From: Rhizaria sp. SCN 62-66 | Taxonomy: Eukaryota | Length of the DNA stretch: 64,000 nt | Assembly: GCA_001724265.1 (NCBI GenBank) | Contig: MEDY01000069.1 | Span: 1-64,000 of the forward strand | Direction: 5' to 3' | Shown here: piece by piece, positions 9,813 through 31,574 of the stretch | How the letters are laid out: the number at the start of each line of letters is the position of its first letter | Numbering within the stretch: position 1 is the first letter of the stretch | The notes under the pieces: generated by a model | Databases searched by the model: none | Told to the model about the DNA's origin: nothing | What the model saw: the letters and a program-made list of their open reading frames with translations, nothing else | Program-made: the position numbers and the translations under genes

Positions 9813-11039
9813 TCACCGGCGCGACTTCTGCTGCTTCTCAGACTGCTTCTCGGGCTGCTGCTGCTGCGCGTTGAGCCGGTCCTCCATCTCGGCCATCCGG
9901 CGCCACATGGCGGCCATGACACCCTGCGTCTCGACGACCTGCCCGGCCAGCTCCATGCATGCCTCGTGCGTCTTGACAATGCGCGCCTCGCGGACGCGCT
10001 TGAGCACCTCGATCACGACGCCCTCGACGCAGTTGAGCTGCTCGAACGACAGCGCCTCGAGCCCCAGCCCCAGCGCGTGCAGCGGCGACACCGACAGCGC
10101 CTCGGCGCGCGGGTCGATGCCGTGCACGTGCACGGCCGCGCGCGCCAGGGCACCGGACAGCCCGGCGCTCGCGCTCGCGCCGGTGTCGGCGCTGCAGCCC
10201 GCACGGGGCACTGCGTGGGCGTGGGCGTGGGCGAGCGCGCCACTGCCACTGCCGCTGTCGCCGTGGCTGCCGGCCTGGAGCGCGGCGGCCACCACCGACG
10301 CGGCGCTCGCGGCGCTGCTGCCAGAGTCGGCGGCAACGGCGGCGGAGGCGGTGGTGAGCGGGGCGGTGAAGAAGGGCGGGGGCGCGCCGGCCGCGATGGA
10401 GGCAAACGTGACGCGCTTCTTGCTGCCCGCCGCGCCAGCGCCCTCGAGCACCAGGGCGGCGGGTACGCGGGCGTCGGCCGCGTCGGCGTCATCGCTAGCG
10501 ACGACGACGGCGGCGTTGGTCACGACAGAGACAGCGGCAGCGGTAGCGGTAGCGGTCTTCTTGATCGAGGCCGAGAGAGTCTGGGCCAGGGTCGTGGCCG
10601 GGGCGGCCGCAGCAGCAGTAGCAGCAGCAGCGGCAGCAACCTTGGCATTCTTGCCCTTGCTGTCAGCCGCAGTCGCATCCTTAGCAGCAGCGGCCTTGTC
10701 CTTGTTCGAAGCCTTAGCAGCAGCCTTCTCCGCAGTAGCCTTCTCCACAGTGGCTTTCTCAGCAGTAGCTTTCTCAGCAGTAGCCTTCTCAACAGCAGCA
10801 GCAGCCTTGTCGGCGGTAGCCTGCGCCTGAGCCTTGAGCTTGTTGGCAGCAGTCATCGCCTCCTTGACAGCAACAGATGCAGCCTCCTTAGGCGCGGCAT
10901 CCTTGGGTGCGACCTCCTTCACCGCAGGCGCGGCAGCGGCGACAGACGCAGCTACAGTCTCCTTCGGGGCAACAGCAGCAGCAGACTTGTCCTTAGCATC
11001 ATTGGCCTCCTTCGTGTTCTTCTTGACAGACTCAGCCGC

Positions 11040-11107
<68 letters not shown>

Positions 11108-13130
11108 AGACGGCGACGGCAGCGGGGGTGGCAGCAGCGGGGGCGTCCGTGTCGACGGCGTCAGAGGCGACGAGCAAAGGCACGCCGTCGGCGTCAATCG
11201 TCGCCGCGGCCACACTCACCGCGCTCTTGGCGGCGGCAACAGGCGCCGACTTGCCGTCCTTCTTGGCAGCGACCTTGCCCTTGCCCTTGCCCTTGCCCTT
11301 GCCCTTCCCCTTGCCCTCGTCGTCACTGTCGACGAGCGATGCAAACACGGCGTCGGCTCGCTCGCGCGCGCGCTCCGCCCCCGCCTGCAGCGCGGCCAGC
11401 ACATCCTCGCCCAGCGCGTCGGCGTCGGCCGTGTCGGCGGGCACGCGCCCCGACAGGTCGTGCGTCGTGGGGTCCGCATTGTGCGCCAGCAGCAGCAACA
11501 CCACACGCTGCGCGTCGCGGAGCCGGGCCTCGTGCTCCGCCTGCTCCGCCGCGGCGCTGTCGACTTCGGCCTCGGGCGCGGACGCGGGCTCAGGCTCGCG
11601 CGGACCCAGGCCGAAGATGTCGGGGTCGTCGTGCTCGCCACGCGCCGCCTCGTCAACCACAGAGCACGCGATGTGCAGCGCGGTGGTCCCCGCGGCCGAC
11701 TGCTCGTTAACGAGCGCCGCGGTCGCCGCAGCCACCGCGTCCTCGGCCGCGGCCGGGCCGAAGAGCGACTGCCCAGACGTAGCGTCCGTGCCGGTCAAGC
11801 TCACGACGGCGGTCGCAGTCCCAGCGGGAGCCGCGGCGGCGGCCTTCTTGGCGGCGGCGGCGGCGGCGGCGGCGTTCTCGACGGAGCGGACGGCGCCGAC
11901 GATTTGCGCCACGGTGGCGAGGCTGCCGCTCTGGCACGCGCACATGAGCACCGAGAGCCCGTCGGCGTTGCTGCAGTGCAGCGACAGCGGGTGCGGCCGC
12001 CCGCTCATCGCGCCGCTGCCAAAACTATAGCCAGAGCCGGAGCCGGAGTTGGCGGACAGGGGCTGGCGCACTTTGGCCAGCGCGGCGACGGCGGCGACGA
12101 ACGAGGGCGTCCAGGCGGTGAGCTTGTCCACGAGAGCGCTCTGCGAGGCGTCGTCCTTCGGGGCGCGGGGTTCGGCGGCGAGGCGCTCGGCCTCGGCCAA
12201 CGCCGCACTGTCGTCGTCCCCAGCATCAGCATCGTCGCTGTCGCCAGTCTTGGTCTTGTTCTTGCTGTTGCTGGCGGCGGCGGTGTCGGCGGCGGCGGCG
12301 AGCGCGGCGGCGGCGGCGGCGGCGGCGGGATTAGCGCGCGCGTAAGCCTCTGCCTGGCGCTGGAGCTGCTCGAGCGAGGGCGGCGGCGTCGCACCCGCAG
12401 GCCCCAGCGCGTGCGCGGCCGCGGCCAGACGAAGCAAGTAGCGGACGACGTGGGTGCGGCCGGCCATGGCGGCGAACATGAGCACCGTGTCGCGGTTGCG
12501 GTTGCTGAGCGCCGTCTCGAACTGCGCCGTGGGCACGCGGGGCGCAATCTCGGAGAAGAGGAAGTGCAGCACCTCGAGGTGGCCCGCGGCCGCGGCGAGC
12601 ATCCACGCCGAGTTGCCGTTGTTAGTGCGCTGCAGCGAGTTGCAGCCGAGGCGCAGCAGCTCGAGCATCACGTCGACGTGGCCGTGGCGCGCGGCGATAA
12701 GGAACGGCGTGTGGCCGACCCCGTCCTCGGCGTCGGGGTGCAGCAGCGGCAGCGCCGTGCTGTCGAAGAGCGCGCGCACGGCCGGGGCGTTGCCAGCGAT
12801 GGTAATGGTGAAGAGGTAGGTCAGGCGGCGCGCGAGGTCGCGCACGTCCTCCTCGGGCATGCCGCCGTTGCCGGAGCCGTTGGAGCGGGAAACAACGCTA
12901 GAGCTACCGCGCGCGCCGGGGGTGACGAGGGATGCGTCAGCGCCCGCGGCGGAGGCGGAGTCAGGGCTGCTGTCGGCGCTGGGGTCGGCGCAAACGACCT
13001 TCTCGAGGTTCTTTTGTGTCTCGATGGCGGTCTTGCGGTCGACCAGCAGCGCGTTCTTGAGCACGTAGAAGTTGCTCTCGTCGTTGTCCGACGCCCGGGA
13101 GCCGGTGGAGGCGGAGGAAGGGTGCGACAT
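9813..13130 (-). CDS. Ankyrin-repeat protein with long Ala/Lys/Pro low-complexity region and C-terminal coiled coil (1105 aa)
   Basis: Ankyrin repeats GHTPFLIAARHGHVDVMLELL, GNSAWMLAAAAGHLEVLHFL, DTVLMFAAMAGRTHVVRYLL, GLSVLMCACQSG, GTTALHIAC, LLLAHNADP; start placed at ATG 13130 (MSHPSSAS) where coding-type composition begins. Confidence 0.8.
11041..11106. repeat. (GCAGGA)11 hexamer tandem repeat encoding (Pro-Ala)n in the ankyrin protein
   Basis: Perfect GCAGGA repeat read directly from the sequence; translates as PAPAPA... on the minus strand. Confidence 0.9.
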
Positions 13131-14110
13131 GGGGCGGACGCAGTCACTGGGCGGCGGAGCGGGGCGGGCGGTGCGCAGCGGTCGGGGGAGCGGGCACTGC
13201 GGAGGGCTGGAGAGGGGTGGCGCAAAGCGAGTAGTGCGCTGCGCTGCTGTAAAGCCTGGAAAAAGCGGTGGTAGAAGGATATGTGCAGGCCGTGAGAGTT
13301 GGGGACCGAGAGCGAACGATATTGGGATTGGCCGAAGAGCCGGTTGAGACGTGGGCGGTAGGTCGTCTTGCATCCGAGAATTTCAGGGGTATAATTCAAG
13401 TAGTCAGAATATTCTTTTACAATTGTATCAATTAAGAAGTCTAAAATTCGTTTGCAGTTGCACATCCGTATCCTGACGACAAATTCAGGCCTACCGGCTT
13501 AACTGCGCAAGCGAAACCTGGGCCTGCAAGCCGATTCCCAACGGAAGGCTGCTGTGTGTGCTTGCTTGCAACAAGTCAGGTTAGAGTTTTATCACTGAAG
13601 ACATAAAACTAGGATAACAAAGTTCAGCGGAAACACAGTTCACATATCTTGTTATCATGTTTGATTGCTATCCTTATAGAGTTGTAAAAAGACACAATGG
13701 CTTTATTCTGCATGCTTTATCCGCATAAATTAAACACGAGCCGACAAATCAAAATCTTCCCGACACAGCCGTCGCCCTTTGTGCGTAGCAGACGCCCGCC
13801 ACCGCCATTGCCGTCGTCGCCGCCGACAACAGTGAGTGCCGCTCGTCACCAACACAAAACCGCAACAAAAAACAACCACATTGTTCCGTTGGTGTTGTTA
13901 TTCCCCCTTCCCCTTTACCCTCTTCAAATCCGTCTATCTCCTTCTTGTAGTAGTTATTAATTAATTAGCTCTTTGCTTAATACTATCATAACTTACGTTG
14001 CCTCCCGTCATGATCTGTGCATCATATCGCATCGTACAGCACGGCATCGCCGCGCACCTCGAGCGCTCGATGGACACAAGACACAAGCAAAGTTGAAGCT
14101 GTTGCTTTGC

Positions 14111-16536
14111 TTACTCGAGCTCGATGATGAGCTGGTCAGCGGCCACAGTGTCACCCTTCTTGGCGTGGACGGCCTTGACGGTGGCGGGCTTGACGGCGCG
14201 GATGCTGTTCTGCATCTTCATGGCCTCAATGACCATGAGCTCCTGGCCACCGACGACCTTGTCGCCGGGCTTGACGTTGAGCGAGAAGATGGAGCCGGGC
14301 ATGGGCGACATAATGGTCTTGGTCAGGTCCACGACCTCGCGGACGGGCATCAGGGGCTTGAGCGCGGCCTCGACCCAGGTGTTGACGGAGAAGTTGTACT
14401 GCGAGCCCATGAAGCCGAGCTGGATGTCGGCGCCGTTGTTCTTGACCGTGACGGCCTGGAGCGTGTGGTACTGCTCGCTGTCGTTGACGCGGAGGTCGAA
14501 CACCGTGTGCGAGGGGTCGTAATTGGTGGCGAAGGACACCTCGGTCATGCCCTCGTCGGAACTGGGGAATGCGTTGACGGAGGGGATCTCGATGTAGGAG
14601 AAGTCGCCGTTCTTGAGCGTAGGGTTCACGCTGCCGGGGACGCAGAAGAAGTAGCGGTCCTTGCCCTCGAGCGTGGCCGTGACGACGAGGTTGTGCGCGT
14701 TGGCCTCGAACGCGCGGCTCGCGGCGGCGGGGGTGAGGATCTTGTTGCCGAGCGTGGACTTGGTGATGGCCTTGAGGGCGACGACGAGCGCGCCGGAGAT
14801 GAGGGCGGTGAACTCGCTGTCGGTGACCTTGTGACCCGTGAAGCCGTGGGGGAAGTTGTCAGCGATGAAGTTGGTGGTGAGCTGGCCCGCCACGAACTTG
14901 GGGTGCTGCATCACCTCGCGGAGGAAGCAGATGTTGTGCGACAGGCCCTGGATGACGGTGGCGTCGAGCGAGCGCTCCATGTGCGCCAGCGCCTCCTTGC
15001 GGGTCGGCGCGTGCGTGATGACCTTGGCGAGCAGCGAGTCGTAGTGGATCGAGATCTTGTCGCCCTCGACGAAGCCCAGGTCGACGCGCGTGTCGGTGGG
15101 GGGCTCGAAGCGGGTGAGCGTGCCGATCGAGGGCAGGAAGTCATTGAGCGGGTCCTCGGCGCACACGCGGGTCTCGACGGACCAGCCATTGATCTTGATG
15201 TCGTCCTGGACCATGGGCAGCGGAAGGCCGGCGGCGACGCGGATCTGCTGCTCGACGAGGTCAAGACCGGAGATCATCTCGGTGATGGGGTGCTCGACCT
15301 GGAGACGCGTGTTCATCTCCAGGTAGTAGTGCTGGCCGTCCTTGCCCATGAGGAACTCGACGGTGCCGGCGTTCTCATAGCCGGAGATCTTGGCCAGCGC
15401 CACGGCCTCGGCGCCGATGCGCGCGCGCTGCTCGGGTGTGAGGAACGTCGACGGGGCCTCCTCGACGAGCTTCTGGTTGCGGCGCTGCACGGAGCACTCA
15501 CGCTCGTGGATGAAGACGGCGTTGCCGTGGGAGTCGCCCAAGACCTGGAACTCGATGTGGCGGGGGTCCTCGATGAACTTCTCGACGAGCATGACGGACG
15601 AGTTGAAGGCCGTGCGGGCCTCGTTGAGCGAGAGGCGGTAGCCGGAGCGGCACTCCTCGTCGTTGTTGGCACGGCGCATGCCCTTGCCACCGCCACCGTG
15701 GGCGGCCTTGACCATGACAGGGTAGCCGATCTTGTTGGCGACCTCGAGGAGGTGCTCCTCGTCCTTGATGGCGCCGATGAAGCCGGGGATGGGCTTCACG
15801 TGGGCCTTCTCGGCGACCGACTTGGCGGCGATCTTGTCGGCCATCTGCTTGATCGTCTCGTGGCGGGGGCCGACGAACTTGATGCCGGCGTTGTGCAGGC
15901 TCTCGGCGAAGGCAGCGTTCTCGGAGAGGAAGCCGTAGCCGGGGTGGACGGCGTTGGCGCCGGTCAGCTTGCAGGCCGCGAGGATGCGCTCGGGGAGCAG
16001 GTACGACTGCAGGGCAGGCGCGGGGCCGATGCAGATGGCCTCATCAGCGAGCTTGACGTGCTGAGACTGTGGGTGAGACAAGCGTCACCCAGCACGAGGT
16101 GGAAGTTGAAGTGATCGAGCGAGGCGGGCAAGGGGGATATGACCAGAGCCAAGATGAGCGACAAAAAAAGGATATGCGTAGAACAAAGAAGGAGTTGCAT
16201 GGGAAAAAAGAAAATGTGAGGTGAGAAAGAGGTCTTAATCTACCACGGTATGAGTGTCAATGAGTCAGAAAGAGCTTATAAAGGTGTAAAAATGAGATTT
16301 GAAGCGTGGGAAGAACGTACGTTGGCATCGGCCTCGGAGTAGACGGCAACGGTCTTGATGCCGAGCTTCTTGCAGGTGCGGAAGATGCGGCAAGCAATCT
16401 CACCACGGTTGGCAACGAGGAGCTTGTTGAAGAGGGGCTTGCCGGTCTCGGAGGAGAACTGGCGAGTCACGGCGACCTGGGCGGAGCGAACAAGCTGCAC
16501 AGCAGACTTGGCAGCACCCTTGCTCGAAGAAAGCAT
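14111..16536 (-). CDS. PCCA: Propionyl-CoA carboxylase alpha chain, mitochondrial (2 exons: 16536-16321, 16066-14111; 723 aa)
   Basis: Presequence then [13 protein letters not shown]; splice join gives [66 protein letters not shown], biotin site [17 protein letters not shown] and HNICFLR favour PCCA over MCCA. Confidence 0.9.
16067..16320 (-). other. GT-AG spliceosomal intron in PCCA (254 nt, phase 0)
   Basis: Donor AAC|GTACGT at 16320, acceptor CCCACAG|TCT at 16067; removal restores the conserved biotin-carboxylase N-terminus. Confidence 0.9.
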
Positions 16537-17560: not shown

Positions 17561-20500
17561 ATGCCGCTCTCCCGCCCCCGCCCCGCCCGCGGGTGTCTGC
17601 TGCTCCGGCAGCTGCTTGCGCTCGCGGTGCTCGTATGCGCCGCGGCGCTACTGCCTATGGTATCCGCACAGGACCCGACGCTGGGCACGAGCTCGAACCC
17701 AATCAAGTTCGGCGTGTCGGCCTCGATGTCCAACGCAGAAGTCACAGCCGTGCAGAACTTTTTCGACACGTTCAAGCTAGACTCATTCTACGTCAACGCC
17801 GTGCGCTCCACGGACCAGATCTCGGGCCTCCAGTCCGGTTTGCTTGACGTCTCAGTTCTCGACGCCGCGCAGGGTTACCTCGCCTGGCGCCGCTTCGCCC
17901 ACCAGGTGCGTCTTACATCCTTAACTTTCGACGAGATATGTCGTATATGTGTGAGCGGTAGAAGCTCAGACTGTGCATTCTGTTACGATTTAACTTGATT
18001 TATCTAATTCCACTAAACCTATTTCGTAAATCCTACATTGTGCCTCGCTGCATATCTTTTGTTTTATTCCTGACTGACTCTTCAGGTCGTGGTGGTTGAG
18101 GGCGCGTCTCAGTCCGCTGGCGGCACCTCCTACACCAGCCAGATCCTCACCCGAGCGGCCACCGGCATCACTTCCTTTGCCGGCCTCGCCAGCACCTCGG
18201 TCTGCGCGCCACAGTTTTTCGGAACCGACATGCTGATGGCCTTCCACTACGGCGTCTCGACGGGCGCCATCACCACGGTCGCGGCCACTGGCGCCACTGC
18301 GCAGAACGTGCGCGTCGACGCCTGCCAGTCTTCCTTCGCCAACTCCATGCGTGGCTTCCTCACCGCGGGCGCGTGTCTGGCCCCCGCGGCCGCCGACCAG
18401 GCCTCGCAGTGCTCCGCCTGCGGGCTGGACACTCTGCTACCCACGGCCGGCTCCTCGGCCGCCACGGCCGGCGCGTGCGACACGGCGCTGCGCACCTACA
18501 CGGGCCGCTCCTCCGCGCTCCAGCGCCTGTCCGAGGGCGTGTGCGGCGCGGCGCTCATACGCGACTCGACCTACCAGCGGCTCTGCGTCGACCCCGTGAC
18601 GGCGAACCTGGCGGCGCCGTCGTGGTGCCCCGAGGTCGGGCCGTCGTTCTTCTCCGTCGTGTCGGCGGGCGGCGTGGGCGGGCTGGGCACGTTCCCCACC
18701 AACGTCATGATGATCCGCCAGTCCTCGCTCTCGGCTTCGATGCTCACCACGCTCTACACCGTCCTCCGCGGCGGCAACTCTAACCCCGCGCTGCTGACGG
18801 CGCTGCAATGGTCCGGCATCACCGCGCCCGGCTCCACCGTCGGCACCGTGGGCCCCATCGCAAACTACGGCACCAACGTCGCCTCGCAGACGCACTTTGC
18901 GCAGTCGGGCTTTGACACGGCCATGTCCGCCGTCGCGGGCGTCGCCGAGTTTGTCTCGTGCACGGGCTGCACGGTCGCCACGCCGCTGTGCGTGCGCGGC
19001 GAGTCGGCCGCTTTCCCGCTGCGCCTCGCGCTGCCCGTGTCGCTTTCGGACACGGCGTCGGTGGCCGCGTTCGACCAGTACTTCGCATACCTTCGCGACG
19101 CCAACTTCACGTCGCCGCCCATCTACATGGTGGGCGTGGCGCCCGAGCTCAACACCATGGAGGCGCTCGAGCTGCGGCAGGCCGACATCGCGTGGCTCGA
19201 CGGCGCGCAGGCCTACCTGGGCTACGCCAAGTTCGGCCACGTCGCGCTTGCCATGGAGCAGGTCATCGACAACCGCACGGGCACGCCCACGGTCGCCACT
19301 TCTTACGCCGCGTCAGTCTTCGCCACCTCGAGCGTTGCCGCCGCCATTGGCAGCTCGTTCGCCGCGCTCAAGACCCAGTCCGCGTGCCACGGCGCGCTTC
19401 TGTCGCTCAACTCACTCACGGCCTTCGCGGTCGGACTGGCCAACCCCACGACGACGCTCATGACCTACACGCCCAACTCAAACCCGCTCAAGTCGTCGTT
19501 GGGCCAGACGCTCGAGTCGTGCCGCTCGCCCGTGCTCGACGTCGCGACCTCGTTCTTTGCCACCGCGTCGTGCGCGCCGCCGCTGTCCGCGGGCCAGGTT
19601 TCGCAGTGCGACTCGTGCACGGCGGCGTGCACCGGCGACAGCATCTACGGCCGCCACTTCGGCGCCGTGCGCGGGCTCGCCGAGTCCGCCTGCGCCGTCG
19701 CCTTCGCGCGCGAGTTAACTTACGACGAGTGGTGCGGCTCCAGTCCCATCGGCGGCTCAGTCGCATCGTGGTGCGCCTCCGCGGTCAACCGCACGGTGAC
19801 CAAGGCGGCGCTGTCATTGGGCACGATGCCGTCGGACGCCTTCATGGCGCGCCCGGCGATCCTGCCCACGACGCTGACGCCCGTGCTGCCGACCGCGATC
19901 GCGCTTCTGTCGACGAACCAGTACCTGTCGATCAACGCGCTCCCGCAGTTCGGCTACCGCGGCATTGTCGCCGCGGCCGCCGTCAGCGCCACCACCACGG
20001 CGACCCACCTGGCCAACGCGGCGACAGTGATCACGGGCACTGTGGGCGGCCCCGCATCGCTGGCGGCCACCGACCAGCCCGCGCTGACTGACGGCTACCC
20101 CGTCTGCGGCACCGTCACGGCTTCGGGGCTCGGCGCGACTGAGAGCAACCCGCTCAAGGTCGCCGTGCCCGTGGGCGCCGACACCGAGGCTCTCGCGGCG
20201 CTGAGCCGGTGGATGACGGCCACGCGCACGCTACAGGCGACGTCGCAGCCGGTCTTCATGTCCTCAGTCCCGCTCAAGGGCGCGGGCGCGGTCGTTGGCA
20301 GCGTCACCACCGGCGTCACCGGCGCCGCGCTTGACGCGCTGCGCAACGCCAAGGTCGACGCCGTGCTGGTCGACGCCGCGACGGCGTGGATGGGCTGGCA
20401 GCGCTTCGGCTTCCGCGTTATTGCCGTGGAGCAGCGCGTGACGGCGCTCAACCCGTCGGACGCGACCGACTCGCTTGCGGCCTCGCGCCCTGTCATGCTC

Positions 20501-23500
20501 GTCAAGTCGTCCTCCACCAACAGCTCCAGCACGGGCCCCACGTTCGCGTCACTGCGCGGCAAGCGGCTGTGCTCGGGCACCTTCACCTCGGCCAACACTT
20601 GGCTCGTCGCCGCCTGGGCCAAGCTCAACAACGCCACCACGGGCTTCGGCGTCACGCCAACTGGGTGGAACTCGGCTGTGAACTACGTGCCCGACGCATG
20701 CAACGCCGACGTGTACACCGACACGGCGTCCTTTTTCTCAGGTGGCCTGTGCGCGCCGCCGATGACCGAGGGCGAGGTGGGCACGTGCCAGACCTGCCCG
20801 TCGGGCGTGACGTCGTGCTCGATGCAGAGCGAGTACGCCGGCAACGAGGGTGCGCTCAAGGGCCTCGTCGACGGCGTCTGCGACGTTGCGCTCGTCCGCT
20901 CCGACACCTACACCAGCGCCTGCGCCTACACCACGACGGTCCTGCCCACGGGCGTGTCAGTCACCACGCGCCCGTCCTGGTGCCCCGACGAGGGCCAGCT
21001 CGCCGCCGTGTCCGACTTCGCCGCCGCGGCCGCGACCGTGGGCCGCGCTCCCACGCGCGCGTGGATGGTGCGCGCCAACTCGCTCTCCGACGCCGTCGCC
21101 GCGGGTTTCATGCAGGCCGTGGTCGCGATGGGCGACTTCCCCGACGTTGCCGACGTGTACCAGCTCACCTCAGTCGCGCCCGTCTACTCCGCGCCCGGCT
21201 CTACCACGGCGCTCACCCCCGGGTCCGAGCTGGCCACGTCGACGCACCTGACGCTGCTCTCGCAGTCGGGCGTCTTCACCTCCGTGCCGGCCATCACGCC
21301 CTACACGTCGTGCTCGACCGCGGCCTACACGCCCTACTGCGTGGCCGCCGTGCCCGACACGTGTCGCAACAAGGGCTCATCGGCGCTGTCCCCGATCCAC
21401 TTCGCGCTGCCCGTGTCGGCGTGGACTGCCGAGGGCGTGGCGTTGTTCCAGGACTACTTCGACCGCCGTGTCGCCACCGCGCTCGCCAACAACGCCGCCG
21501 CGACATACATCAAGGCCATCATCGTGCGCGACGTCGCTGGCGCGCTGGGCAACTCGCTCGAGGCGCTGGTGCGCCAGCTCGTTGACGTCGTCGCGCTCGA
21601 CCCCATCCCGGCCTACCTGGGCTGGCAGCGCTACGGCCACCAGGTGATTATGCAGGAGCTGACACAGCTCACCGAGGCGCGCTCCTACCGCGTCACGCCT
21701 TGGGTGCGGCCCGACTCGGGCTACACCACCTTCGCCAGCCTGCGCGGCGCTGTCTCGTGCCACGGGTCCTACCTCTCCTTCCCCGCGCTCGGCGCAGTGG
21801 CGTTCGGCCTCAACAACTGGCGGAGCACGAGCTTCAACGTCACCGCGTCCGACTCGCCGGCCACGGCGCCCGTGTCGGTGGCCGCGCTGGCCACCAAGGC
21901 CGTCGACGCCTGTGACGCCGACGCGCGTGAGCTGCTCGCGGGCTACTTCGGCCGCTCCTGCGCCGCGCCCGACTCGGTGGGCCGCGCGGGCCTCTGCGAG
22001 AGCTGTCCCACGATGACGGACCGCGGCATCACGTGCGACCTGTCCAACGCCTACGCGGGCCCCTGGGGCGCAATGCGCGCGCTGGCCGAGGGCGTGTGCG
22101 ACGTCGCCTTCGCGCGCGAGTCCTCCTGGGTCGACATCTGCGGCGGCGGCAACTCGGAGCCGCCCGCGTGGTGCCCCGCCACACCGCTCGTGGCCATCAC
22201 GCACGACACGGACCCGCTGATCCCGGCCGCGACCGGCCTCGCGCTGGCGCCGGGCCACGCGCTCATGGTGCGCCCCAACTCGCTCTCGGACACGGCGCTG
22301 CAGGGCCTGTACGGCGCGCTGGTGGGGCTCAACTCGAATCAGACGCTGCTGCGCATGTTCCGCTTCCCGCGCGGACTGGCCCCGCCGATCGACGGCCAGG
22401 TCGCCACCGAGGCCGGCACGTCGCTCGCACTGAGCCCCGTGGCACCCGCGATCGCGGTCGTGCCGGGCATTGCGCAGTTCATTGCGCAGACCACCGCGCA
22501 GCTCCCGCCCGAGACGTGCCAGTCCGTCCCCGGGCTCGGCCGCTCGGGCTCGCGGCCCACGACCACGACGTCGACCACGACGACCTCGGCTGCGGGGCTG
22601 CTGTCCTTCACGCGCGCCACCGCTACCCCCGCGCTCGGCGGCGGCCCGGCCAACGCGCTGCGCTTCGCCGTGCCCGGGTCCGTGGACCTGGCTGTTCTGC
22701 GCGAGTTCCAGGCGTACTGGGACTCGGTGGCAGATGTGTCGGGACTCTACGTGCAGGCCGTCACGGGCGTCAACTCGGCCACCGCGCTCGAGGCCGGCGA
22801 CACCGACGTCGTGTTCCTCGACGCCTCGGCCGGGCTCATGGCCAACGTGCGCTATGGACACCAGATTGTGGCCGTCGAGGCCGATTACGAGGTGACGTCG
22901 CGCTACACGACCAACCTGACGACGACGCTTAGCAGCGGCGCCGTGGTGCGTAACGAGACTGAGGTTGTGGACGCCATCGTGTACACGCGCGCGGGCTCGG
23001 GCGCGTGGGCTCTCGCGTCAGAGCAGCCCGTCTTTGGGCTCTACAGCTGGAGCGACCTCCGCGGCTCGCGCGTGTGCATCCCCGAGATGCTGTCCTCCTC
23101 GGGCACCGTGCTGCCGCTGATCAACGGGCTCAGCAACGAGATGAACTTCACCACGCTCGCGCAGCCCACTGTACCGGACACGACGCCGATCAACAACACT
23201 GTGCTCGACGCCTGCAACTCGCCCATCGTCAATGGCTACCGCAACTTCTTCGGCGCCGTGTGTGCGCCGCCGTCGGTGGCGGGCGAGGCCGGCGTGTGCG
23301 ACCTGTGCTCTGCCAGCGGCACCTCGATCAACATCGCCGCGTCCGCCTCGGCCTCGCTCAACGTGTCCTCGCCGACCTGCGACGCGTCCAACCTGCACGC
23401 GGGCGAGCGCGGCGCGCTGCTTGGCCTTTCGACACGCGTGTGCCAGGTCGCTTTCATGCGCAACGACACGGTGAACCGCTTCTGCGACCCCGTATACCAC

Positions 23501-24262
23501 CCGCTGGGGACCAAGATGACGGGCTTCCTGTCGCCCTTCGACGTGCCCGACTCGATCCTGGGCAACACCTCGGCGTCTGAGTCGGCGTCGTCGTTCGCGC
23601 CGCCGTCGTGGTGCCAGGCGCTGACCGACTACGCGTACATCGCGCCCGACTCCGACATCTCCACCACGCTGCGCAACACGCGCGCGCCCACGTCGGCCTT
23701 CATGGTCCGCAGCGGCTCCCTCAGCACCAACACGACGCGCCAGCTGTTCGAGGCACTCGAGGCGCTGTCGTCGCGCCCCATCATGCTCAAGTACCTGGGC
23801 GCGTACGGCGTGACGCACCCGTCGGCCAACGGCGGCACGATCACCGTGGTCAACACGCGCATCACGACGACGACGAGCAGCGGCAGTACTGCCGTGTCGA
23901 CCTCCAAGGTCACCTCGCCCGTCGTCGCGCCCGCGGCAACGCTGCTGGGCACGCAGGCCGCGACCGACGCGCACCTGAGCACCTGGCAGACCGTCATGGA
24001 GAGCTACACGCCCGGCTTCTCGCAGTTCCTCACGTGCCAGATTGAGACGCAGGCGCTCATGCTCTCGGCCAACGGCCCGTCGCAGGCGCAGTGCTCCATG
24101 GGCGCGCCCCGCGATTGCGCCACGATCGGCCCCGCGCGGTTGTACCTCACCGACAACTCCAACGCAGCCTCCGCGCTGGCCGTCGGCTCGCTCGGCGCCA
24201 TGCTCACGGTTTTCGCCGCGGCCATCGCACTCGCGGGCGGGCTCGAGGGGCTCACCAAGTGA
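17561..24262 (+). CDS. Secreted, probably GPI-anchored protein with five tandem transferrin-like (PhnD/transferrin fold) lobes (2 exons: 17561-17905, 18086-24262; about 2173 aa)
   Basis: Signal peptide (LLRQLLALAVLVCAAALLPMVSA-QD); five internal repeats, each with A[L]...[AV]D...[LV]D, F.SLRG..SC[HS]G-like, F...CA[AP]P..C..C, Y.G..GA...L.EG.C.VA[FL].R and P....M.R motifs matching transferrin lobes; C-terminal small-residue site plus hydrophobic tail (SNAASALAVGSLGAMLTVFAAAIALAGG). Confidence 0.8.
17906..18085 (+). other. GT-AG intron in the transferrin-like gene (180 nt, phase 0)
   Basis: Donor CAG|GTGCGT at 17906, branch-like CTGAC near 18070, acceptor TTCAG|GTC at 18085; join RFAHQ/VVVVE matches RYGHQVIMQE and RYGHQIVAVE in lobes 4 and 5. 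Confidence 0.88.
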
Positions 24263-24698: not shown

Positions 24699-27600
24699 TC
24701 ACTCGCTGCTCTTGTCCGCGGCGACGCCAGCCTTGTCCCTGCTGCCCCCCATCGCGGCGCAGAGTGCCTCGATGCCCCGGAGCGCGTAGAACTCCCTATA
24801 TACGCCGACGGGCAGCGCGGCCATCGCGGCGACGGCCTTCTGCGCGTGCACCAGCACCACCGCGCCGGCGACGACGTCCTTGTTGCCGTAGACATCCTTG
24901 CCCGCGTAGACCTCGGGCAGCAGGTGGCGCCAAAAGACGTTGACGGACACACCAACGTCGCCCGGCAGCGTTTCGACGTGGTGCAGCCAGAAGGCCGGCA
25001 GGAAAAGCACGTCGCCGGGTTCCAGCACGCCCTCGATGCGGCGCGCATGCGCCGACTGCAGGTACCGCGCGGGCAGCGCGCTGTCCGCGTCGCTTTCAGC
25101 GGCCGAAGGCAGGCGCGTGAAGGGCGCGGAGGACGCGTCGGGCGCGGCGGCGATACCCAGCGCACCGGCGTGCGCGGGAGCCCACAGCGTGACGCGCTTG
25201 CGGCCGCGCACGTGGACAAGGAAGTTGTCGGCAACGTCGAAGTGCGGCCACAGCTGCAACCCCGGCGACGACACGCGCAGCACGGAGCTGAACGCCGCGG
25301 CCTCGGGCACGAAGGCCGGCACGGTGATGTCGCGCGCAAGCTCAGGGAACGTTTCGGCGATGTCCGCGACGCTCTTGCGCGCGTCGGCGCCCACGGAGCG
25401 CAGGTACATATACTCCGCAGCGGCAGCGGCGCCCTCAGAAGAGCCCTCAGAGGAGGCCTTGCCCGCGGCGAGCAGCTCGGCCATGCCAACAGTGCGGAAG
25501 CTGTAGTTGCGCGGCTGCATATTCATCAGCGGCGTGTTGGCCACGTGCACGGGCAGCTGCACGCCCTGCGTGGCGCGCGTGAGATACGCGTCGTCCGCCC
25601 AGCGTGCCACGCACGGCCCCACGTCCAGTCCGCGCAGAATCACAGGCGCCGACACAGGCAGCACCAGGGCCGCAAACTCGGTCGCGGTGCATCCAGTCAC
25701 CACGGGAAGCTCGCGCGCAACACTCGCGCGCGCTGCTGCGCAGTCGCTTGCGGGAACGTCCGCAAAGACAGGCGGCACGGGGATGGGCTCAGCGGCCGCG
25801 GCGACAGTGGCCATCGCGGAGGCGATGCCATGCTCGCGGGTCCCGGGCGTCTGCGCACGCGCCAACAAAGAGGAAGACGGGGTCAGAGCTGCACCGCAGT
25901 CGGAGCGCACGAGCGCGGATAGCGGCAGCGACGGCGACTGCGGCAATGACGCCGGGATGACTGGCAGCGCGTTCGATCCAGTCGCAACAGGTGTCGCAGC
26001 AGCCGTGGCCCTGGAACCACTACCAGACTTAGCCACAGCTAAAGCAGTGGTAGCCGCAACAGTCACCGCAGGAGTGTTCGCAGCGGCGGTCGCAGCGACA
26101 TTAGCAGCGAGTGCGGCGGCAGCGAGCGCCTTGACTACCGCGGGAGGCAGCTCAGCAGCGTCCTTCGCGTCAGGTGAGAATGCAGCGATGTCGACGACGA
26201 CGTGCTCGACCTGCGGCGCGTAGGACTTGACGACCTCGACGTGCGTCACCTCGAGTGCCCACTCGCGCTTGCCCGCGCTCAGCAGCGGCGCCGCGGGCGC
26301 GGGCGCGCGCAGGGATGAGAGCGCGAGCGCGGGGCTGGCCAGCACGGCGCCGGCGGCCGGGTGGACCGTCAGGCCGCGCGGCAGCACCACGGCGGCGCTG
26401 TCGCCGCTGCTCTTGCTGTTGGCGGCGCCGTGGGCCGCGGGGACGGCGACCGAGTCGAAAACGACCCCCTGCTGTTCGGCCGTCTCGCGCGCGACGTCGG
26501 AGTCGAGCAGCGCGCGAAGCGCCGGGAGCAGCGTGTTGCGCGCCCACGCGCGGCCGCCGCCGCGGGGCACGTTCATGTGCACGTGGAGCATGCCGCCACG
26601 CGTGCGCAGCGCGGCCAGCGCGGCGAGCCAGCCGTCCTCGCTGGACGGGATGAGGCCGAGCGACACGCGGTCCGCGGACTCGCGGACGAGCCACCGCACC
26701 GCGGCACGCCGGTTGTCACCGGGCACCACCGTCACGCGCGACGACGCCGGGGCCACTGCCGCAGCGCTGTTGTCAATGGAATCGGTGGTGTTGCGGCGCA
26801 GGGCGCGGCGGAGCGCGACGACCGAGGGCGGGTTAAGCTCGCATGCGAACACGTGCTCCGCGCGCGCGCGGACGACGTATGGCAACGTGAAATACCCTAC
26901 GCCCGCGTACAGGTCAACCATGGTCTCGCGCGCGCCCAGCGCGGCCGTCAGCGCAGCGGCCGACGCGCCCGCGAAGGGGCTCGCAAAAGCAGCAGTAGGA
27001 GCAGTGGGGGCCGAGGCTTTGGCGAGCGGCAGCGCGGCAGCGGCGGCGGCGGCGTCAGCGGCCGCGAGAGGTGCGGGCATCGCGGCGGCGCGGGCCTTCT
27101 CGGTGGTGTTTCCAGAGGAGAACATGCTGCGCAGCACGTCGAGCGCGTACACGATGCCGTTCTCCTTGTGCAAGACCCAGCACGTGTCGCGCGCGAAGCC
27201 CTCCGCGGCAGGCGCGGGCACGCACGCCTCGGCCGCGGCGCCCGCGGACACGCCCGCGGCGACGGCGTCGGCGGGCGCGGCGGCGTAGATGTCGTCGTCC
27301 TCCGCGGCGGCGGCGCGCGCGGCGGCGGCGACGGGCCCCGCGGCGCCGCCCTGCGTCCACAGCAGGCGGGCGGCACTGGAGCGCACCAGATCTCCTGCCA
27401 CGGGTGCCTGGCGGGCGAGCGCGGCGACGCGCAGCGCGGCGGCGATGAGGCCGTACACGGTGTCGGCCGCGAGCGGGGCGAAAGAGGACGGAACCGGGGG
27501 CAGCTCGGCGGAGTCGGCGGCGGCGGCAGCGGCGCGAGACGGCTGCTTCTTGTTCTGCTGCTGTTGCTGTGAGGGCAGAGGGGCAAAGTAAGACGTCTCG

Positions 27601-29657
27601 CCTGCGGCCACGTTCTCTGGCTTCTTGATCGCAACAGCCCCGGCGCCACCAGCCGCAGCATCCGCGGTTTCAGGGGCAGCCCTGTCGGCGGCGCGCTCAG
27701 CGACGGCGCCGGTGGTCAACAGCTCCCAGAGCCCGCCCACGGCGCCGATGGGGGAGCTGGCCGGCAGCAGGGCCACGTGGGCCCCCGCCACAGCGTCCTC
27801 GTCACCGGTTACGCTGTTGGGAGCGTTGGTGTTGGCGAGAGGGAGGAGCGAGGTGCGGCCGAGGACCTCCCAGCGGTGCGGCGGCAGCGCGCGCATGGCG
27901 GCTTTGTACAGCGCGTCGTGCGGCGCGAGCCCGTGGCGCGAGAGCAGCGCCGACAGCGCGGACGTCAGACGGGTCAGCGGGGAGCTCGTGCCGCCGCCGG
28001 CCGCCGTGGCCACAGCCGCAGTCGCGGCTGACGAGGCAGCAGCAGTGGCGGTCGCGCTCGCAGGCGCAGCGGCCGGCACGGGAGCCGCGGTGGCGGTGAG
28101 GGCGGACACGGGGAGCACGACGGCTGTCGCGACGATCGCACCCGCGTCGGCAGCGGCGTTTGCACCGAGAGCGGCGAGCGCAGCGGCAGTGACGCGCGCG
28201 TGCGCGCCGTCCTTGTCCTTTGGCTCGAACTTGGCGGCGGGTTTGACCGGTGTGCAGCCCGAGGTGCTGACGGCGGCGGCGAGCGCGGCGGCCGCGGCGG
28301 CGAGCGCGGCCGTGTAGCCGGCGCTGGGGCCCGCGGGGGCGCTGACTGCGAGCGCGGCGTCGACTGCGAGCGCGGCCGAGACAGAGGCAGCGGCAGCGGT
28401 AACGCTCGCGCTCGAGAGTGCAGTGTGCGGGAGAGCGACGGAGCGCGCGAGAGCGAGCGCGATGGAGCCGGCGGGCGTGAGCGGGAGCACGGACCAGGGC
28501 TCCGACGACACCGCCACAGGCGCGATCGCACCCGGCACACCCGAAGCCGCAGTCGCAGTCGCAGAGGCAGAGGCAGAGGCATCATCAGCGGTCTGAGCGA
28601 GGAAGGAGGCGATCTCAGTGACCGCGGTCAGTGCCGAGCCGGCGTCGATCGCGGCCGCTACGGCCTCACCAGTCAGCGCGCTGAATGACGCCGTGTTGGC
28701 GCCGCTGGCGGCGCTGGCGTTGGCGGCGGGGCGGTCGAGCGCGAGCCAGCCGCGGGCCTTAAGGCTGTCCTTGTAGAACTTGGTCAGGCGGCGCGGCACG
28801 GCGACAGCCAACGGCGCGGTCACGGCCGCAATTGCAGCGGGCGTCGCCGGCTCTGTCGCAGCGCGCGCATTCTCGCTAGCGTTGCCGCTGTCGCTGTTGC
28901 TCTTGGCCGCGGCGGCGGCGGAGCGCGAGGAGAAGAGGTGCGAGACGGCCTTGAGCGCGTCGGTGAAGGCGTCGATCTTGGCGAAGTTGCGGCGCTGCTT
29001 CGCGTTGGCAAGCGCAAGCACGGAGCGCACGTACGCGCAGTTGACGACAAGGCGGCCCGCAAGCACGACGGGTGCATCCACGCGGAGCGCGCCGCGCACG
29101 TTGACGATGTACCGCTTCGCGACGGCCGTGATGCCAGAGTCACGGTACCCGCACTGGTGCGCCAGAGTCAGGAAGTGCGACGCGGCCTCGAGCGTGCGCG
29201 CCTCGATCGCGAGGATGAAGCCCTCGTAGCGCAGGTGGATGTTGCCCTCCATGTCGTCAGCGTTAGCATCCGAGTCTGCGTCGGCGTTGTCACCAGAGAC
29301 TGATTGCTCGGGGATGGCGGCGGGCTCGGAGGAGGGCACAGCGGGCGCCGGGAGCAGCGCAGCGTCGGTAGAATTAAGGTACGGGCGCAGAGCGTCGAAG
29401 ATTTGGGACTCAGTGGCGTACGAGTGTTCAGCAACAAGCCACGTGCCGCCCTTGTCGGCGCTGCCGTCGCGGAACAGCGTGACGCGGCCGGAGCAAGAGC
29501 TCGTCGTGTAGATGTCGTCCTGCGAGTTGATGTACGAGACGAGGTCGAAAACAGGCGCGTCAATCGACCCCTTGGGGGATTTGTCTGTAATACCCTGGCG
29601 CAGACCCTCGAGCACGGCGAAGCGGCGCTGGTCGAAAGCGCACTTGTCGCGGCTCAT
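24699..29657 (-). CDS. TYW3-TYW2-TYW5: tRNA wybutosine biosynthesis triple fusion: TYW3 methyltransferase + TYW2/Trm12 aminocarboxypropyltransferase + TYW5 JmjC hydroxylase (1652 aa)
   Basis: TYW3: DKSPKGSIDAP, YTTSSCSGR, GYRDSGI. TYW2: LPPHRWEVLG, ENGIVYALD..SMFSSGN.TEK, VDLYAGVGYFTLP, ACELNP, GDNR, ADRVSLGLIPSS, VKSYAP. TYW5: PVILRGLDVGPC..RW, YLRSVG.DARK..ADI...FP.LA.DI, FSSVLRVSS, LWPHFDVADN (HxD), LEPGDVLFLPAFWLHHV, SVNVFW, KDVYGNKD. Single uninterrupted ORF. Confidence 0.88.
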   Translation of the reverse strand: MSRDKCAFDQRRFAVLEGLRQGITDKSPKGSIDAPVFDLVSYINSQDDIYTTSSCSGRVTLFRDGSADKGGTWLVAEHSYATESQIFDALRPYLNSTDAALLPAPAVPSSEPAAIPEQSVSGDNADADSDANADDMEGNIHLRYEGFILAIEARTLEAASHFLTLAHQCGYRDSGITAVAKRYIVNVRGALRVDAPVVLAGRLVVNCAYVRSVLALANAKQRRNFAKIDAFTDALKAVSHLFSSRSAAAAAKSNSDSGNASENARAATEPATPAAIAAVTAPLAVAVPRRLTKFYKDSLKARGWLALDRPAANASAASGANTASFSALTGEAVAAAIDAGSALTAVTEIASFLAQTADDASASASATATAASGVPGAIAPVAVSSEPWSVLPLTPAGSIALALARSVALPHTALSSASVTAAAASVSAALAVDAALAVSAPAGPSAGYTAALAAAAAALAAAVSTSGCTPVKPAAKFEPKDKDGAHARVTAAALAALGANAAADAGAIVATAVVLPVSALTATAAPVPAAAPASATATAAASSAATAAVATAAGGGTSSPLTRLTSALSALLSRHGLAPHDALYKAAMRALPPHRWEVLGRTSLLPLANTNAPNSVTGDEDAVAGAHVALLPASSPIGAVGGLWELLTTGAVAERAADRAAPETADAAAGGAGAVAIKKPENVAAGETSYFAPLPSQQQQQNKKQPSRAAAAAADSAELPPVPSSFAPLAADTVYGLIAAALRVAALARQAPVAGDLVRSSAARLLWTQGGAAGPVAAAARAAAAEDDDIYAAAPADAVAAGVSAGAAAEACVPAPAAEGFARDTCWVLHKENGIVYALDVLRSMFSSGNTTEKARAAAMPAPLAAADAAAAAAALPLAKASAPTAPTAAFASPFAGASAAALTAALGARETMVDLYAGVGYFTLPYVVRARAEHVFACELNPPSVVALRRALRRNTTDSIDNSAAAVAPASSRVTVVPGDNRRAAVRWLVRESADRVSLGLIPSSEDGWLAALAALRTRGGMLHVHMNVPRGGGRAWARNTLLPALRALLDSDVARETAEQQGVVFDSVAVPAAHGAANSKSSGDSAAVVLPRGLTVHPAAGAVLASPALALSSLRAPAPAAPLLSAGKREWALEVTHVEVVKSYAPQVEHVVVDIAAFSPDAKDAAELPPAVVKALAAAALAANVAATAAANTPAVTVAATTALAVAKSGSGSRATAAATPVATGSNALPVIPASLPQSPSLPLSALVRSDCGAALTPSSSLLARAQTPGTREHGIASAMATVAAAAEPIPVPPVFADVPASDCAAARASVARELPVVTGCTATEFAALVLPVSAPVILRGLDVGPCVARWADDAYLTRATQGVQLPVHVANTPLMNMQPRNYSFRTVGMAELLAAGKASSEGSSEGAAAAAEYMYLRSVGADARKSVADIAETFPELARDITVPAFVPEAAAFSSVLRVSSPGLQLWPHFDVADNFLVHVRGRKRVTLWAPAHAGALGIAAAPDASSAPFTRLPSAAESDADSALPARYLQSAHARRIEGVLEPGDVLFLPAFWLHHVETLPGDVGVSVNVFWRHLLPEVYAGKDVYGNKDVVAGAVVLVHAQKAVAAMAALPVGVYREFYALRGIEALCAAMGGSRDKAGVAADKSSE

Positions 29658-29957
29658 GGTGCGGACTCTGCCTACAGGTTGGAAAAAGAGGTTGTGATCG
29701 TCAAGTGAGAGCGTTATATTATACAAGAAGATAAGACTACCTTTTATATTTAAATGCTAAATTATACAAGCCAATTTCCCCATTAAGGCCTTCAGCCAGC
29801 ATTTGCCACTTGCCCTCTGTAAGACGACGTGCACATGGCGATGCCCACTTTGCCCACACCTCACCCTGACTTAAACCACTCAATGTTTCTCACTGTATGT
29901 GCGCTTTATGGAATTTCCATACCTTTTTACGCCTGTTTCCACTTGCTGCTGTCCAGA

Positions 29958-30411
29958 ATGGATAAACCTGAACCTCCGTTGCCAACTATGGCCACTGGTG
30001 CTGATGCCACGAACCTCCTCTCCCACATGTATTCACCCGCGTTCGCGCCTCTAGTTGACCAGGGTGCGATCATTCATGTCACAGCATGCTACGAGCACCC
30101 TGCACAGTTAGCCAACGGCGACCGCTGCTACTACACGCTGCAAATCAACCAGCACACGCCTAAGTCAGACTGGGACTTTTTCGTCCTCAACTCGTCCCGC
30201 GCCGTCGCCGACGTCTCCCTTATCTCCGGACAGCTGCTGCGCGACGAGCCGCATCTGCACTGCGGGATTCAAGGCCGTCCCGACGTTGTTGCGGCACTTT
30301 GCGATTTGCGCAAGCAGCGCATCGCTCACAATCATCCTAACTTGACGACTGTGCCTGAAAGTGCGACTGAGGCAAGTACTGGTTCGAGTGCTCCTGCAAA
30401 CGCCGACGATG

Positions 30412-30442
<31 letters not shown>

Positions 30443-31574
30443 GACCACTCGTCCTCTGGGTACCCTATCCTCTGGTCCCGACTGTTTCATTGTCACCCGG
30501 TTGTACAACTGCGATTTTACCGACAGCGCCTCAGCTTGCGCAACAGAGGCCGAGTGCGTTCTTCCGCTCACACACTCGATCTTCTCTGTGCAGCCGCCCG
30601 GTTCCGTGACGTTCATCGCCCCGGCTGCGGCTGCTCAGCGCTTCCTCGGCTCCACTGTTCCCACTCTGACACACGGAGCCCGCGTCGCAGTCACCGCCTC
30701 TGCTAGCACGTTGTTGGCGCAACGCGGCGTGCGCGTCTCCGCCGTAACAAGCCAGCCGAGCAATAACACCGCAGCCAACGCGGGCAGCATGCTCAGTGCA
30801 AGCGCTATCATCAACAGCATCCGCGCCGCGGGTGCCCGCATTGTCTCCATCGAGCTCGGTCCGAACTCGACCCACATGTGCTACGCGCGCGCCCCGTTCC
30901 CCACCCTCGCGAACATGAGCAACAGCAACGCTGCGATTGCGCGCGATGGATCGGGGTGCTCGAGCTCGAACTCGATTAGTGCTGCACTGACGACTGAGAC
31001 CGCAGGGGCGAGCGCTTCTGGCGCCGCCACTGAGACATTGGTCGACGTGCTGATGTTCTCAGTGTACCGCGGGCCCCTCAACTGTGCCGTCAGCGACGTC
31101 ATCGTGCCCGACTGGGCCGGCGTCAACTGCTCGAGCTGGGGCGTTCCCGCGTCGCGCTGCGCCGAGCCCACCAAGAGTGACGGCGACGCGACGACCTGTA
31201 GCGGCCCGAGTTTGCGTTTGGACTCTTGCTCGACTACCAATGCTGGTTTCCACCCGTTGCCAGGGTACGCTCTTGGCTTCACTTTGCAGCAGTTGCACCG
31301 CGATTTCGAGCTCATCAACGCCCCCTTCAACCCGCGCTATTGCGACTTTGGCATCAAGACCCCCCCCGTGGCCGCTACGCACGCGAGTGTTGTGCCGGCT
31401 GCGAGTGGCACTGAAGCTCCAGCGGCGGACCGCGCACAGTGCCCGTGGGGGACTGACGGGGCGCACCTCTCGTACGAAGGCTGGACTTTCTATCTCCTCA
31501 AGCGCCGCGGACACGCGCAACACAGTGATGTTTCCGGCAGGGCTGACAGCTGTGACAGTTGCAGCAACGCCTGA
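29958..31574 (+). CDS. Hypothetical protein (538 aa), no recognisable domain
   Basis: Long ORF with ATG at 29958 immediately after an acceptor-like CCAG; contains a poly-Ala tract like neighbouring genes; weaker codon bias; TGA at 31572-31574. Confidence 0.55.

Follow-up and report, generated by a model that had tools for sequence, protein, structure and literature searches.

The gene and its five-lobed product

We analysed a window of 64,000 nucleotides, i.e. positions 1 to 64,000 of contig MEDY01000069.1 from Rhizaria sp. SCN 62-66 (assembly GCA_001724265.1), and in it a transferrin-like gene that spans positions 17561-24262 of the forward strand. The gene comprises two exons, and its predicted product of 2173 residues carries a signal-peptide-like N-terminus, five tandem transferrin-like lobes and a hydrophobic C-terminal stretch (Table 1). 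The initial annotation had read the span as one open stretch, which had to be corrected: translation from 17177 meets in-frame stops from 17996 on, within an intron of 180 nt. Retention of this intron brings in four in-frame stops, while its removal keeps the frame. The GT donor at 17906 lies directly after the codon for Gln115, and the intron ends with a pyrimidine-rich tract and the AG at 18085; its G+C content is 38.9%, compared with 65.2% and 70.6% in the exons (92.5% at the third codon positions of the coding sequence). The splice model is supported because three observations agree: the lobe profile runs across the junction, exon 1 matching its positions 1-80 and the beginning of exon 2 its positions 79-395; exon 1 aligns with residues 37-114 of the orthologue P0153, the alignment stopping precisely at the junction; and the orthologues P0002 and P0004 are continuous across it, with no gap or insert. 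The exon-2 product is 100% identical to database protein P0001, and a second copy of the gene was absent from a six-frame scan of the window.

Table 1. Features of the transferrin-like gene and its product, in window coordinates. Bits are leave-one-out profile scores; support values are those of the lobe tree.
Feature	Position	Strand	Details
Exon 1	17561..17905	+	115 codons: ATG at 17561, signal peptide, lobe 1 profile positions 1-80
Intron	17906..18085	+	180 nt, GT..AG, pyrimidine-rich 3' end
Exon 2	18086..24262	+	open frame, 2058 codons and TGA stop (24260-24262)
Signal-peptide-like N-terminus	17561..17668	+	residues 1-36: Arg-rich start, hydrophobic core, V-S-A, then Gln37
Lobe 1	17687..19003	+	residues 43-421, split by the intron; 165.1 bits; clade with lobe 1 of P0153 and P0004, support 100
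Lobe 2	19004..20137	+	residues 422-799; 153.3 bits; lobe-2 clade, support 100
Lobe 3	20138..21379	+	residues 800-1213; 179.5 bits; lobe-3 clade, support 99
Lobe 4	21380..22642	+	residues 1214-1634; 210.4 bits; clade support 100
Thr-rich linker (Thr/Ser-rich stretch)	22559-22588	+	in lobe 4 span
Lobe 5	22643..24181	+	residues 1635-2147; 139.8 bits; grouped with the last lobes of relatives, support 96-97
Thr/Ser-rich stretch	23864-23905	+	in lobe 5 span
C-terminal anchoring signal (putative)	24152..24259	+	from hydropathy and coordinates
Small-residue patch	24152-24172	+	directly before the hydrophobic stretch
Hydrophobic stretch	24173-24244	+	24 residues
Polar end	24245-24259	+	five residues

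Within the product, the positions of Cys residues repeat with a period of approximately 395-440 residues, and cutting at a recurring N-terminal motif delimited five units of 379, 378, 414, 421 and 536 residues, with pairwise identities of 25-31% over 335-398 aligned columns. Since a BLASTP self-comparison gave zero off-diagonal pairs at E <= 1e-3, the repeats were shown by profiles: when a profile of four lobes was scored against the fifth, each lobe reached 139.8-210.4 bits, as compared with at most 4.3 bits for the best shuffle (195-200 shuffles scored per lobe). The five Cys-patterned repeats described in the initial annotation were thus borne out, at nearly the same coordinates. Relaxed forms of the six sequence motifs that it had assigned to each repeat occur in all five lobes, but the strict forms occur in 3, 2, 1, 1, 1 and 1 of the five; all six strict forms stand together in lobe 4, the most transferrin-like lobe, and in no other. 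Nine Cys residues are aligned in every lobe; several match transferrin Cys residues by position, with no disulfide pairing implied, in the S-C-H, C-A/V-P and C-x-x-C segments, and other lobe Cys residues, e.g. one preceding D-V-A-F, have no transferrin counterpart. Lobe 5 contains long low-confidence inserts.

Only two windows of the product exceed the hydropathy threshold, at residues 11-37 (Kyte-Doolittle mean 2.54) and at about residues 2144-2168. The former supports the signal peptide proposed in the initial annotation (residues 1-36), and similar signal-peptide-like N-termini occur in P0153 and P0004. As to the glycosylphosphatidylinositol (GPI)-type tail proposed along with it, the hydrophobic stretch is present but is followed by five polar residues; given that the tail is not strictly terminal, it is compatible with anchoring by GPI as well as by a transmembrane segment that a short tail follows. 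We moderately favour tethering by a GPI anchor over the alternative of a single helix with a five-residue tail. The product contains 15 N-glycosylation sequons.

Contigs of the polyA metatranscriptome run X1 (labelled activated sludge) cover 22 of 30 bins of the gene at an identity of at least 95%, and near-identical sequence is present in wastewater-type runs. One contig of run X5, a run whose kind is not on record, crosses the intron unspliced. The contig joints 20000/21525 and 20812/21584 were rejected as likely assembly artefacts, their short side comprising only 20-21 letters. The match of one X1 polyA contig to the window begins only at 17521, 40 bases ahead of the start codon; the 168 G+C-rich letters upstream of this point are unlike the window, which may reflect either chimeric assembly or the fusion of a transcript 5' end to other sequence.

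Transferrin fold and the ferric site

The transferrin-like identity put forward in the initial annotation was confirmed by profile, structure and language-model searches, which agree. The Pfam Transferrin profile (PF00405) matched the exon-2 protein in 3 stretches with 45.6 bits (cut-off 20.3). Scored singly, lobes 3 (27.6 bits) and 4 (32.1 bits) passed and lobe 2 (17.8 bits) stayed below the cut-off; no PF00405 match was obtained for lobe 5 or for the exon-2 part of lobe 1, but both belong with the rest because the leave-one-out profiles match them. A profile of lobes 2-5 matched 92 sequences of solved structures at E <= 1, and the best 60 of these 92 were all transferrin-family chains, including melanotransferrin (6xr0, 2.2e-25) and ovotransferrin (1.1e-19); saxiphilin (5e-13) and the inhibitor of carbonic anhydrase (1.9e-12) were also among the matches. 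The proposed check of the fold on single lobes had a matching outcome, as lobes 4 and 5 were modelled by AlphaFold as transferrin-type lobes (lobe 4: mean predicted local distance difference test score, pLDDT, 82.1 and predicted template-modelling score, pTM, 0.84, from an alignment of 39 rows; lobe 5: pLDDT 73.5 and pTM 0.77, from 40 rows). When both models were compared with the PDB by Foldseek, every entry among the matches listed contained a transferrin-family chain, and target-normalised template-modelling scores to single transferrin lobes were 0.61-0.70 for lobe 4 and 0.53-0.61 for lobe 5. The language-model search returned transferrin clusters at 0.93. Together, these data support a secreted, membrane-tethered, predicted five-lobed member of the transferrin superfamily.

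To locate the iron site we used ovotransferrin (1aiv), in which we take Asp60, Tyr92, Tyr191 and His250 to be the Fe(III) ligands and Thr117 and Arg121 to be the carbonate ligands; counted along the 1aiv alignment, positions 60, 92, 117, 121 and 191 are D, Y, T, R and Y. The lobe consensus places a conserved Asp under Asp60 and a Tyr under Tyr92, but Gly under Thr117 and Ser under Arg121. Its other conserved Tyr stands under Tyr188, a non-ligand, and a residue other than Tyr stands under the ligand Tyr191. The Y-x-G-x-x-G-A motif of the initial annotation is thus present, with its Tyr aligned to the non-ligand rather than to the ligand position.

Lobe by lobe, none of the five has lost the ligand Asp; the first ligand Tyr (the Tyr92 column) is found in lobe 1, in lobe 4 and perhaps in lobe 2. 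Neither the carbonate-anchoring Thr nor the carbonate-anchoring Arg/Lys (replaced by G, S, S, S and S) is kept in any lobe. The same is true of the second ligand Tyr, which is replaced by R, H, N, P and E, and the ligand His is kept in lobe 4 only. The full Asp-Tyr-Tyr-His set is found in none of the five lobes, and the multivalent metal capture considered in the initial annotation finds no backing in the site residues, of which Asp alone is common to all lobes. For comparison, the lobes of relatives were aligned to the five-lobe profile and local segments were compared. All five lobes of Nk52 and all four of Clim, two transferrins described below, display C-H-T-G-x-x-K, Y-x-G-Y-x-G-A and P-x-H at the same columns (except that lobe 1 of Nk52 lacks the first, non-ligand Tyr of Y-x-G-Y-x-G-A), and the ligand columns are therefore valid.

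The degenerate pattern is common to the orthologues P0153/P0002 and P0004 and to other close relatives. All 15 lobes of the three orthologues have the Asp, and so do 27 of the 31 close-clade lobes with a residue at that column. Lobe 2 carries His and Asp, and lobe 5 His and Glu, at former ligand positions in all three orthologues. Retention of the Asp and of these lobe 2 and lobe 5 residues despite an identity of 38% suggests that the cleft is still under selection. We hold with high confidence that the protein is a five-lobed surface member of the transferrin superfamily lacking the canonical site.

Relatives, lobe numbers and surroundings of the gene

When 1.84 billion representative proteins were searched exhaustively with the profile, only 222 matched at E <= 0.001 and 16 at E <= 1e-30. 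Five full lobes each were found in P0002 (71% identical), P0004 (38% identical) and Nk52, and P0153, the full-length member of the P0002 cluster, likewise has five. The two orthologues are metagenomic, and their five lobes correspond position by position to those of the window protein. The Clim protein (Clim_evm17s1) has four lobes. Pfam Transferrin stretches number seven in Bryopsis GMH39771.1 and four each in the Caulerpa entry, P0023 and Clim, so that four- or seven-lobed forms occur in Corallochytrium, Caulerpa (Caulerpa lentillifera) and Bryopsis entries. A different architecture is displayed by the two-lobe relatives, in which the lobes lie at the C-terminal end of long proteins, downstream of 2 to 15 He_PIG or 20 Big_5 repeats; such proteins with Ig-like arrays and two lobes (P0006, P0008, P0013, P0014 and P0017) come next in similarity after the orthologues (1e-49 to 1e-82). 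P0006 had 0 relatives among 27 pattern matches in prokaryote genomes, and of 178 pattern matches of lobe 4 in metagenome contigs one was a relative, the 7562-base contig of P0002, which added no flanks. As a separate observation, P0016, P0019, P0005 and P0003, all from outside the window, are uncharacterised canonical transferrins with intact ligand motifs and many lobes.

The C-termini of these proteins differ. In the window protein and P0153, 5-7 residues follow the hydrophobic stretch, which forms the very end, without a cytoplasmic tail, in P0004, P0008 and P0016 (the Bryopsis protein). P0006 has a weaker Trp-/Leu-rich hydrophobic stretch followed by three residues, and the Nk52 and Clim proteins have a helix followed by a charged cytoplasmic tail.

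A maximum-likelihood tree was calculated for 45 lobes from 22 chosen proteins, lobes with fewer than 240 filled profile columns having been dropped (IQ-TREE quick search, unrooted, support by the Shimodaira-Hasegawa-like approximate likelihood ratio test only; 12 rows flagged for odd composition). Lobes 1 to 5 each grouped with the same-numbered lobe of P0153 and P0004 (support 100, 100, 99, 100 and 97), and the fragments P0009, P0010 and P0011 fell inside numbered-lobe clades. The last lobes of the two-lobe relatives grouped with the lobe-5 clade (support 96) and their first lobes with the group of lobes 1-4 (support 89). From this unrooted, quickly searched tree we infer, for the order of events, that the ancestor was a module of two lobes and that its first lobe had been multiplied to four by the time the three lineages with orthologues diverged. 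The lobes of Nk52 and Clim grouped with canonical transferrins (support 94); since the Nk52 lobes are placed there and not lobe by lobe with ours, the five lobes of Nk52 probably arose independently.

The initial annotation knew of no description of a five-lobed cell-surface array in a protist. The literature that could be searched, which omits most subscription-journal reviews of transferrin architecture, yielded no paper on transferrins that exceed three lobes; two apparent candidates, PMC13345962 and PMC4342544, proved irrelevant. The architecture is, however, not unique, as five-, four- and seven-lobed entries exist in public protein sets, and the search for homologues with more than three lobes that had been suggested returned five-lobed ones (P0002, P0153, P0004 and Nk52), all as uncharacterised entries. 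The window protein is a predicted iron-site-degenerate variant of the transferrin superfamily, and it would stand out by an iron site that was dismantled within a conserved clade of surface-anchored pentalobal proteins.

With respect to known systems, melanotransferrin (MELTF/CD228; 6xr0), which is anchored by GPI, gave the best solved-structure profile match and the first Foldseek match of lobe 4. Like the window protein it is anchored in the membrane, and in line with the 'ferric N-lobe and open C-lobe' in the title of PMC7804310, iron is not bound by all of its lobes. It differs as a two-lobed animal protein whose N-lobe has the full ligand set, which none of our five lobes has. Saxiphilin and the inhibitor of carbonic anhydrase do not transport iron, the cleft or surface being re-used for other ligands. 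They share the transferrin fold and altered binding sites with the window protein and set a precedent for such re-use, but are soluble bilobal vertebrate proteins. The pacifastin heavy chain (Macrobrachium AFQ98270.1, P0043 cluster), a three-lobed protein, also exceeds two lobes (four profile stretches in P0043), but is a secreted arthropod protein with a much weaker match (2.3e-16).

Closer in architecture is Nk52_evm17s1400 (P0003, 1894 residues, EukProt), with a prefix that we take to stand for the nucleariid Parvularia atlantis. This protein, too, has a signal peptide, a row of five lobes and a membrane anchor, but it is only 23% identical to the window protein, keeps the canonical ligands in all five lobes and is anchored by a true transmembrane helix followed by some 35 cytoplasmic residues. 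The proteins with Ig-like arrays share the degenerate ligand pattern and, in part, a hydrophobic C-terminus (present in P0008, weaker in P0006, none in P0013), but carry two lobes after He_PIG or Big_5 repeats, where the window protein consists of five lobes alone. Dunaliella salina TTf/TTF-1 (AAB36531.1, 1274 residues), with its three lobes, is likewise a multi-lobed protein at the surface of a unicellular eukaryote. As far as the available text of PMC13462969 goes, TTF-1 resides at the cell surface, is regulated by iron and has been linked to iron uptake; the latter two features set it apart, and it is likened here by description. The Thr, Lys/Arg and Y-x-x-Y motifs missing from the window protein are retained in the related multi-lobed green-algal entries of Bryopsis and Caulerpa. 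Finally, the phytotransferrin group ISIP2a/FEA would be set apart by description: the available text of PMC10372677 presents ISIP2a as unlike canonical transferrins in both sequence and predicted structure, whereas the window protein matches canonical transferrins.

The gene is surrounded by eukaryotic housekeeping genes of ordinary kind; a gene for iron uptake was not seen among those scanned in the window. On the reverse strand, at 24699-29657, a single open reading frame (ORF) of 1652 residues unites domains of TYW3, TRM5/TYW2 methyltransferase and Cupin_8/JmjC type, apparently a fusion of three enzymes that act in wybutosine tRNA modification; this ORF and the transferrin-like gene are convergent, with a spacer of 436 bases (42% G+C) between them. 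An ORF of 3932 residues at 50122-61920 (-) contains DUF3638 and DUF3645 in its middle and several EF-hand pairs near residues 3020-3375. The propionyl-CoA carboxylase alpha gene at 14111-16081 (-), in its ATG-started form, lacks the N-terminal biotin-carboxylase domain that is present in the 656-residue P0157. Its best named match is a EukProt fragment of Guttulinopsis vulgaris (78% identity over 59% of the query), and identity to the enzymes of animals, fungi and Balamuthia is at most 47%; a cercozoan affinity near Guttulinopsis is only a lead. The nearest named matches of the neighbouring DDX56 gene are in oomycetes (48%). In view of the matches of these two genes, a Fonticula-like affinity considered at first was dropped. 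ORFs of 1199, 579, 1982 and 872 residues at 9675-13271 (+), 29835-31571 (+), 32464-38412 (-) and 46180-48795 (+), respectively, matched no Pfam family at E <= 1e-5. The first of these overlaps a nearly equally long ORF on the opposite strand, which is expected because the DNA is very G+C-rich. Across the window, coding G+C is about 65-78% versus 39-51% in introns and spacers, so that gene boundaries are visible in the composition profile.

Possible roles of the degenerate lobes

Taken as a whole, the best explanation, which we consider probable on balance, is a five-lobed tethered transferrin-fold protein with a dismantled iron site, whose remodelled clefts would bind ligands other than Fe(III)-carbonate. 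A single gene, predicted to be spliced, encodes a predicted secreted, membrane-tethered glycoprotein of five tandem transferrin-fold lobes. The protein is placed in a divergent branch of the superfamily whose Fe(III)/carbonate site was dismantled, with the Asp kept throughout. This clade appears to derive from a module of one N-type and one C-type lobe, which is also found at the end of the long Ig-like domain arrays; here the N-type lobe would have been multiplied to four. At the cell surface the lobes may still close around ligands and open again, in pockets remodelled lobe by lobe that would lack classical carbonate-dependent ferric binding. The protein could then serve as an array that binds or captures a ligand other than Fe(III)-carbonate, or could sense such a ligand; metal might still be held by lobe 4, and at most there. 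The protein probably binds something other than iron; that small ligands are bound in the clefts we place slightly short of an even chance. In the most far-reaching version, which we regard as improbable, the window protein would be the first member recognised of a separate clade in uncultured heterotrophic protists in which the ferric/carbonate site was replaced by new lobe-specific sites. Candidates for these would be the Asp/His/Asp set of lobe 2 and the Asp/His/Glu set of lobe 5, each found in 3/3 orthologues, and the result would be a surface array for several different metals or ligands that arose from fourfold multiplication of the N-type lobe of an ancestral two-lobe module.

Several observations weigh against this explanation. 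The 17905/18086 joint occurred in no RNA contig of the runs searched, in which uncovered parts of the gene carry no weight, and the X1 polyA contigs on the gene could stem from DNA carry-over. The structure models cover lobes 4 and 5, the fold of lobes 1-3 following from homology, and the assignment of ligands is based on sequence alignment only, with an ambiguous Tyr92 column in lobe 2, where a Tyr lies seven residues downstream. Former ligand positions vary among orthologues in lobes 1 and 3, so that drift or a purely structural role fits there as well as lobe-specific pockets do. Finally, lobe 4 keeps three of the four iron ligands and has a Tyr three residues before the lost one; altered ligand sets still allow iron binding in some transferrins, insect transferrin-1 (PDB 6wb6) being an example, and lobe 4 may therefore bind iron as well.

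This last point bears on the reading of the protein as a working iron transferrin, i.e. a multivalent surface array that captures Fe(III) with all or most lobes in the manner of Dunaliella TTf, which we consider unlikely. Besides fold and homology, it can call on the Asp, one Tyr and the His of lobe 4, also present in the 71%-identical orthologue, and on a surface tethering like that of melanotransferrin and of the surface-located, iron-regulated Dunaliella TTF-1 (available text of PMC13462969). However, the second Tyr, the Thr and the Arg/Lys are absent from 5/5 lobes, the His from 4/5 and the first Tyr from 2 or 3 of 5, P0004 has lost even the His of lobe 4, and iron-uptake genes were not evident among the neighbours scanned. 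A structural or adhesive surface coat, in which the lobes would be rigid, disulfide-rich, glycosylated blocks that bind no small ligand, is in our view doubtful. It is consistent with the 15 sequons and the Thr/Ser-rich linkers, with the variation in lobes 1 and 3 mentioned above, and with the adhesin-like placement of two lobes after long He_PIG or Big_5 arrays in the closest paralogue types; it accounts less well for the cleft Asp that persists in most lobes of the clade (27/31) and for the lobe 2 and lobe 5 residues shared by orthologues as distant as 38% identity.

Another possible ligand class is suggested by the Phosphonate-bd profile (PF12974), which had been named along with PF00405 in the initial annotation and which, like PF00405, passes its cut-off on the exon-2 protein (65.1 bits, cut-off 27). 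It scores above PF00405 on the whole protein (65.1 versus 45.6 bits), and one source names P0153 'ABC-type phosphate/phosphonate transport system substrate-binding protein'. Nevertheless, a PhnD-type protein that binds phosphate, phosphonate or another oxyanion is very improbable. PF12974 also strongly matches canonical transferrins (Nk52 1.7e-48, Bryopsis 3.8e-30, amphioxus 'LTF' 2.4e-44) and is present in 31-71% of the members of the transferrin clusters listed, so that its match reflects the shared fold; NCBIfam TIGR01098 reaches only 19.2 bits against a cut-off of 112; and the solved-structure matches, by sequence and by fold, are all transferrins among those listed. On these grounds phosphonate binding was rejected as the main explanation.

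The usual picture of transferrins is one of animal iron carriers that have two lobes, those with three being a few exceptions. The relatives described here indicate that lobe number is much more plastic, with four, five and seven lobes in protists and green algae. They also indicate that the five-lobed form evolved two times or more: in one case the iron site stayed intact, in another it was dismantled. In practical terms the value is limited, as the organism is uncultured and function is predicted from sequence and models. The clade of the window protein would nonetheless be a natural case of the transferrin scaffold in non-iron use at the surface of a microbial eukaryote, and it may help to trace the diversification of the transferrin fold outside animals.

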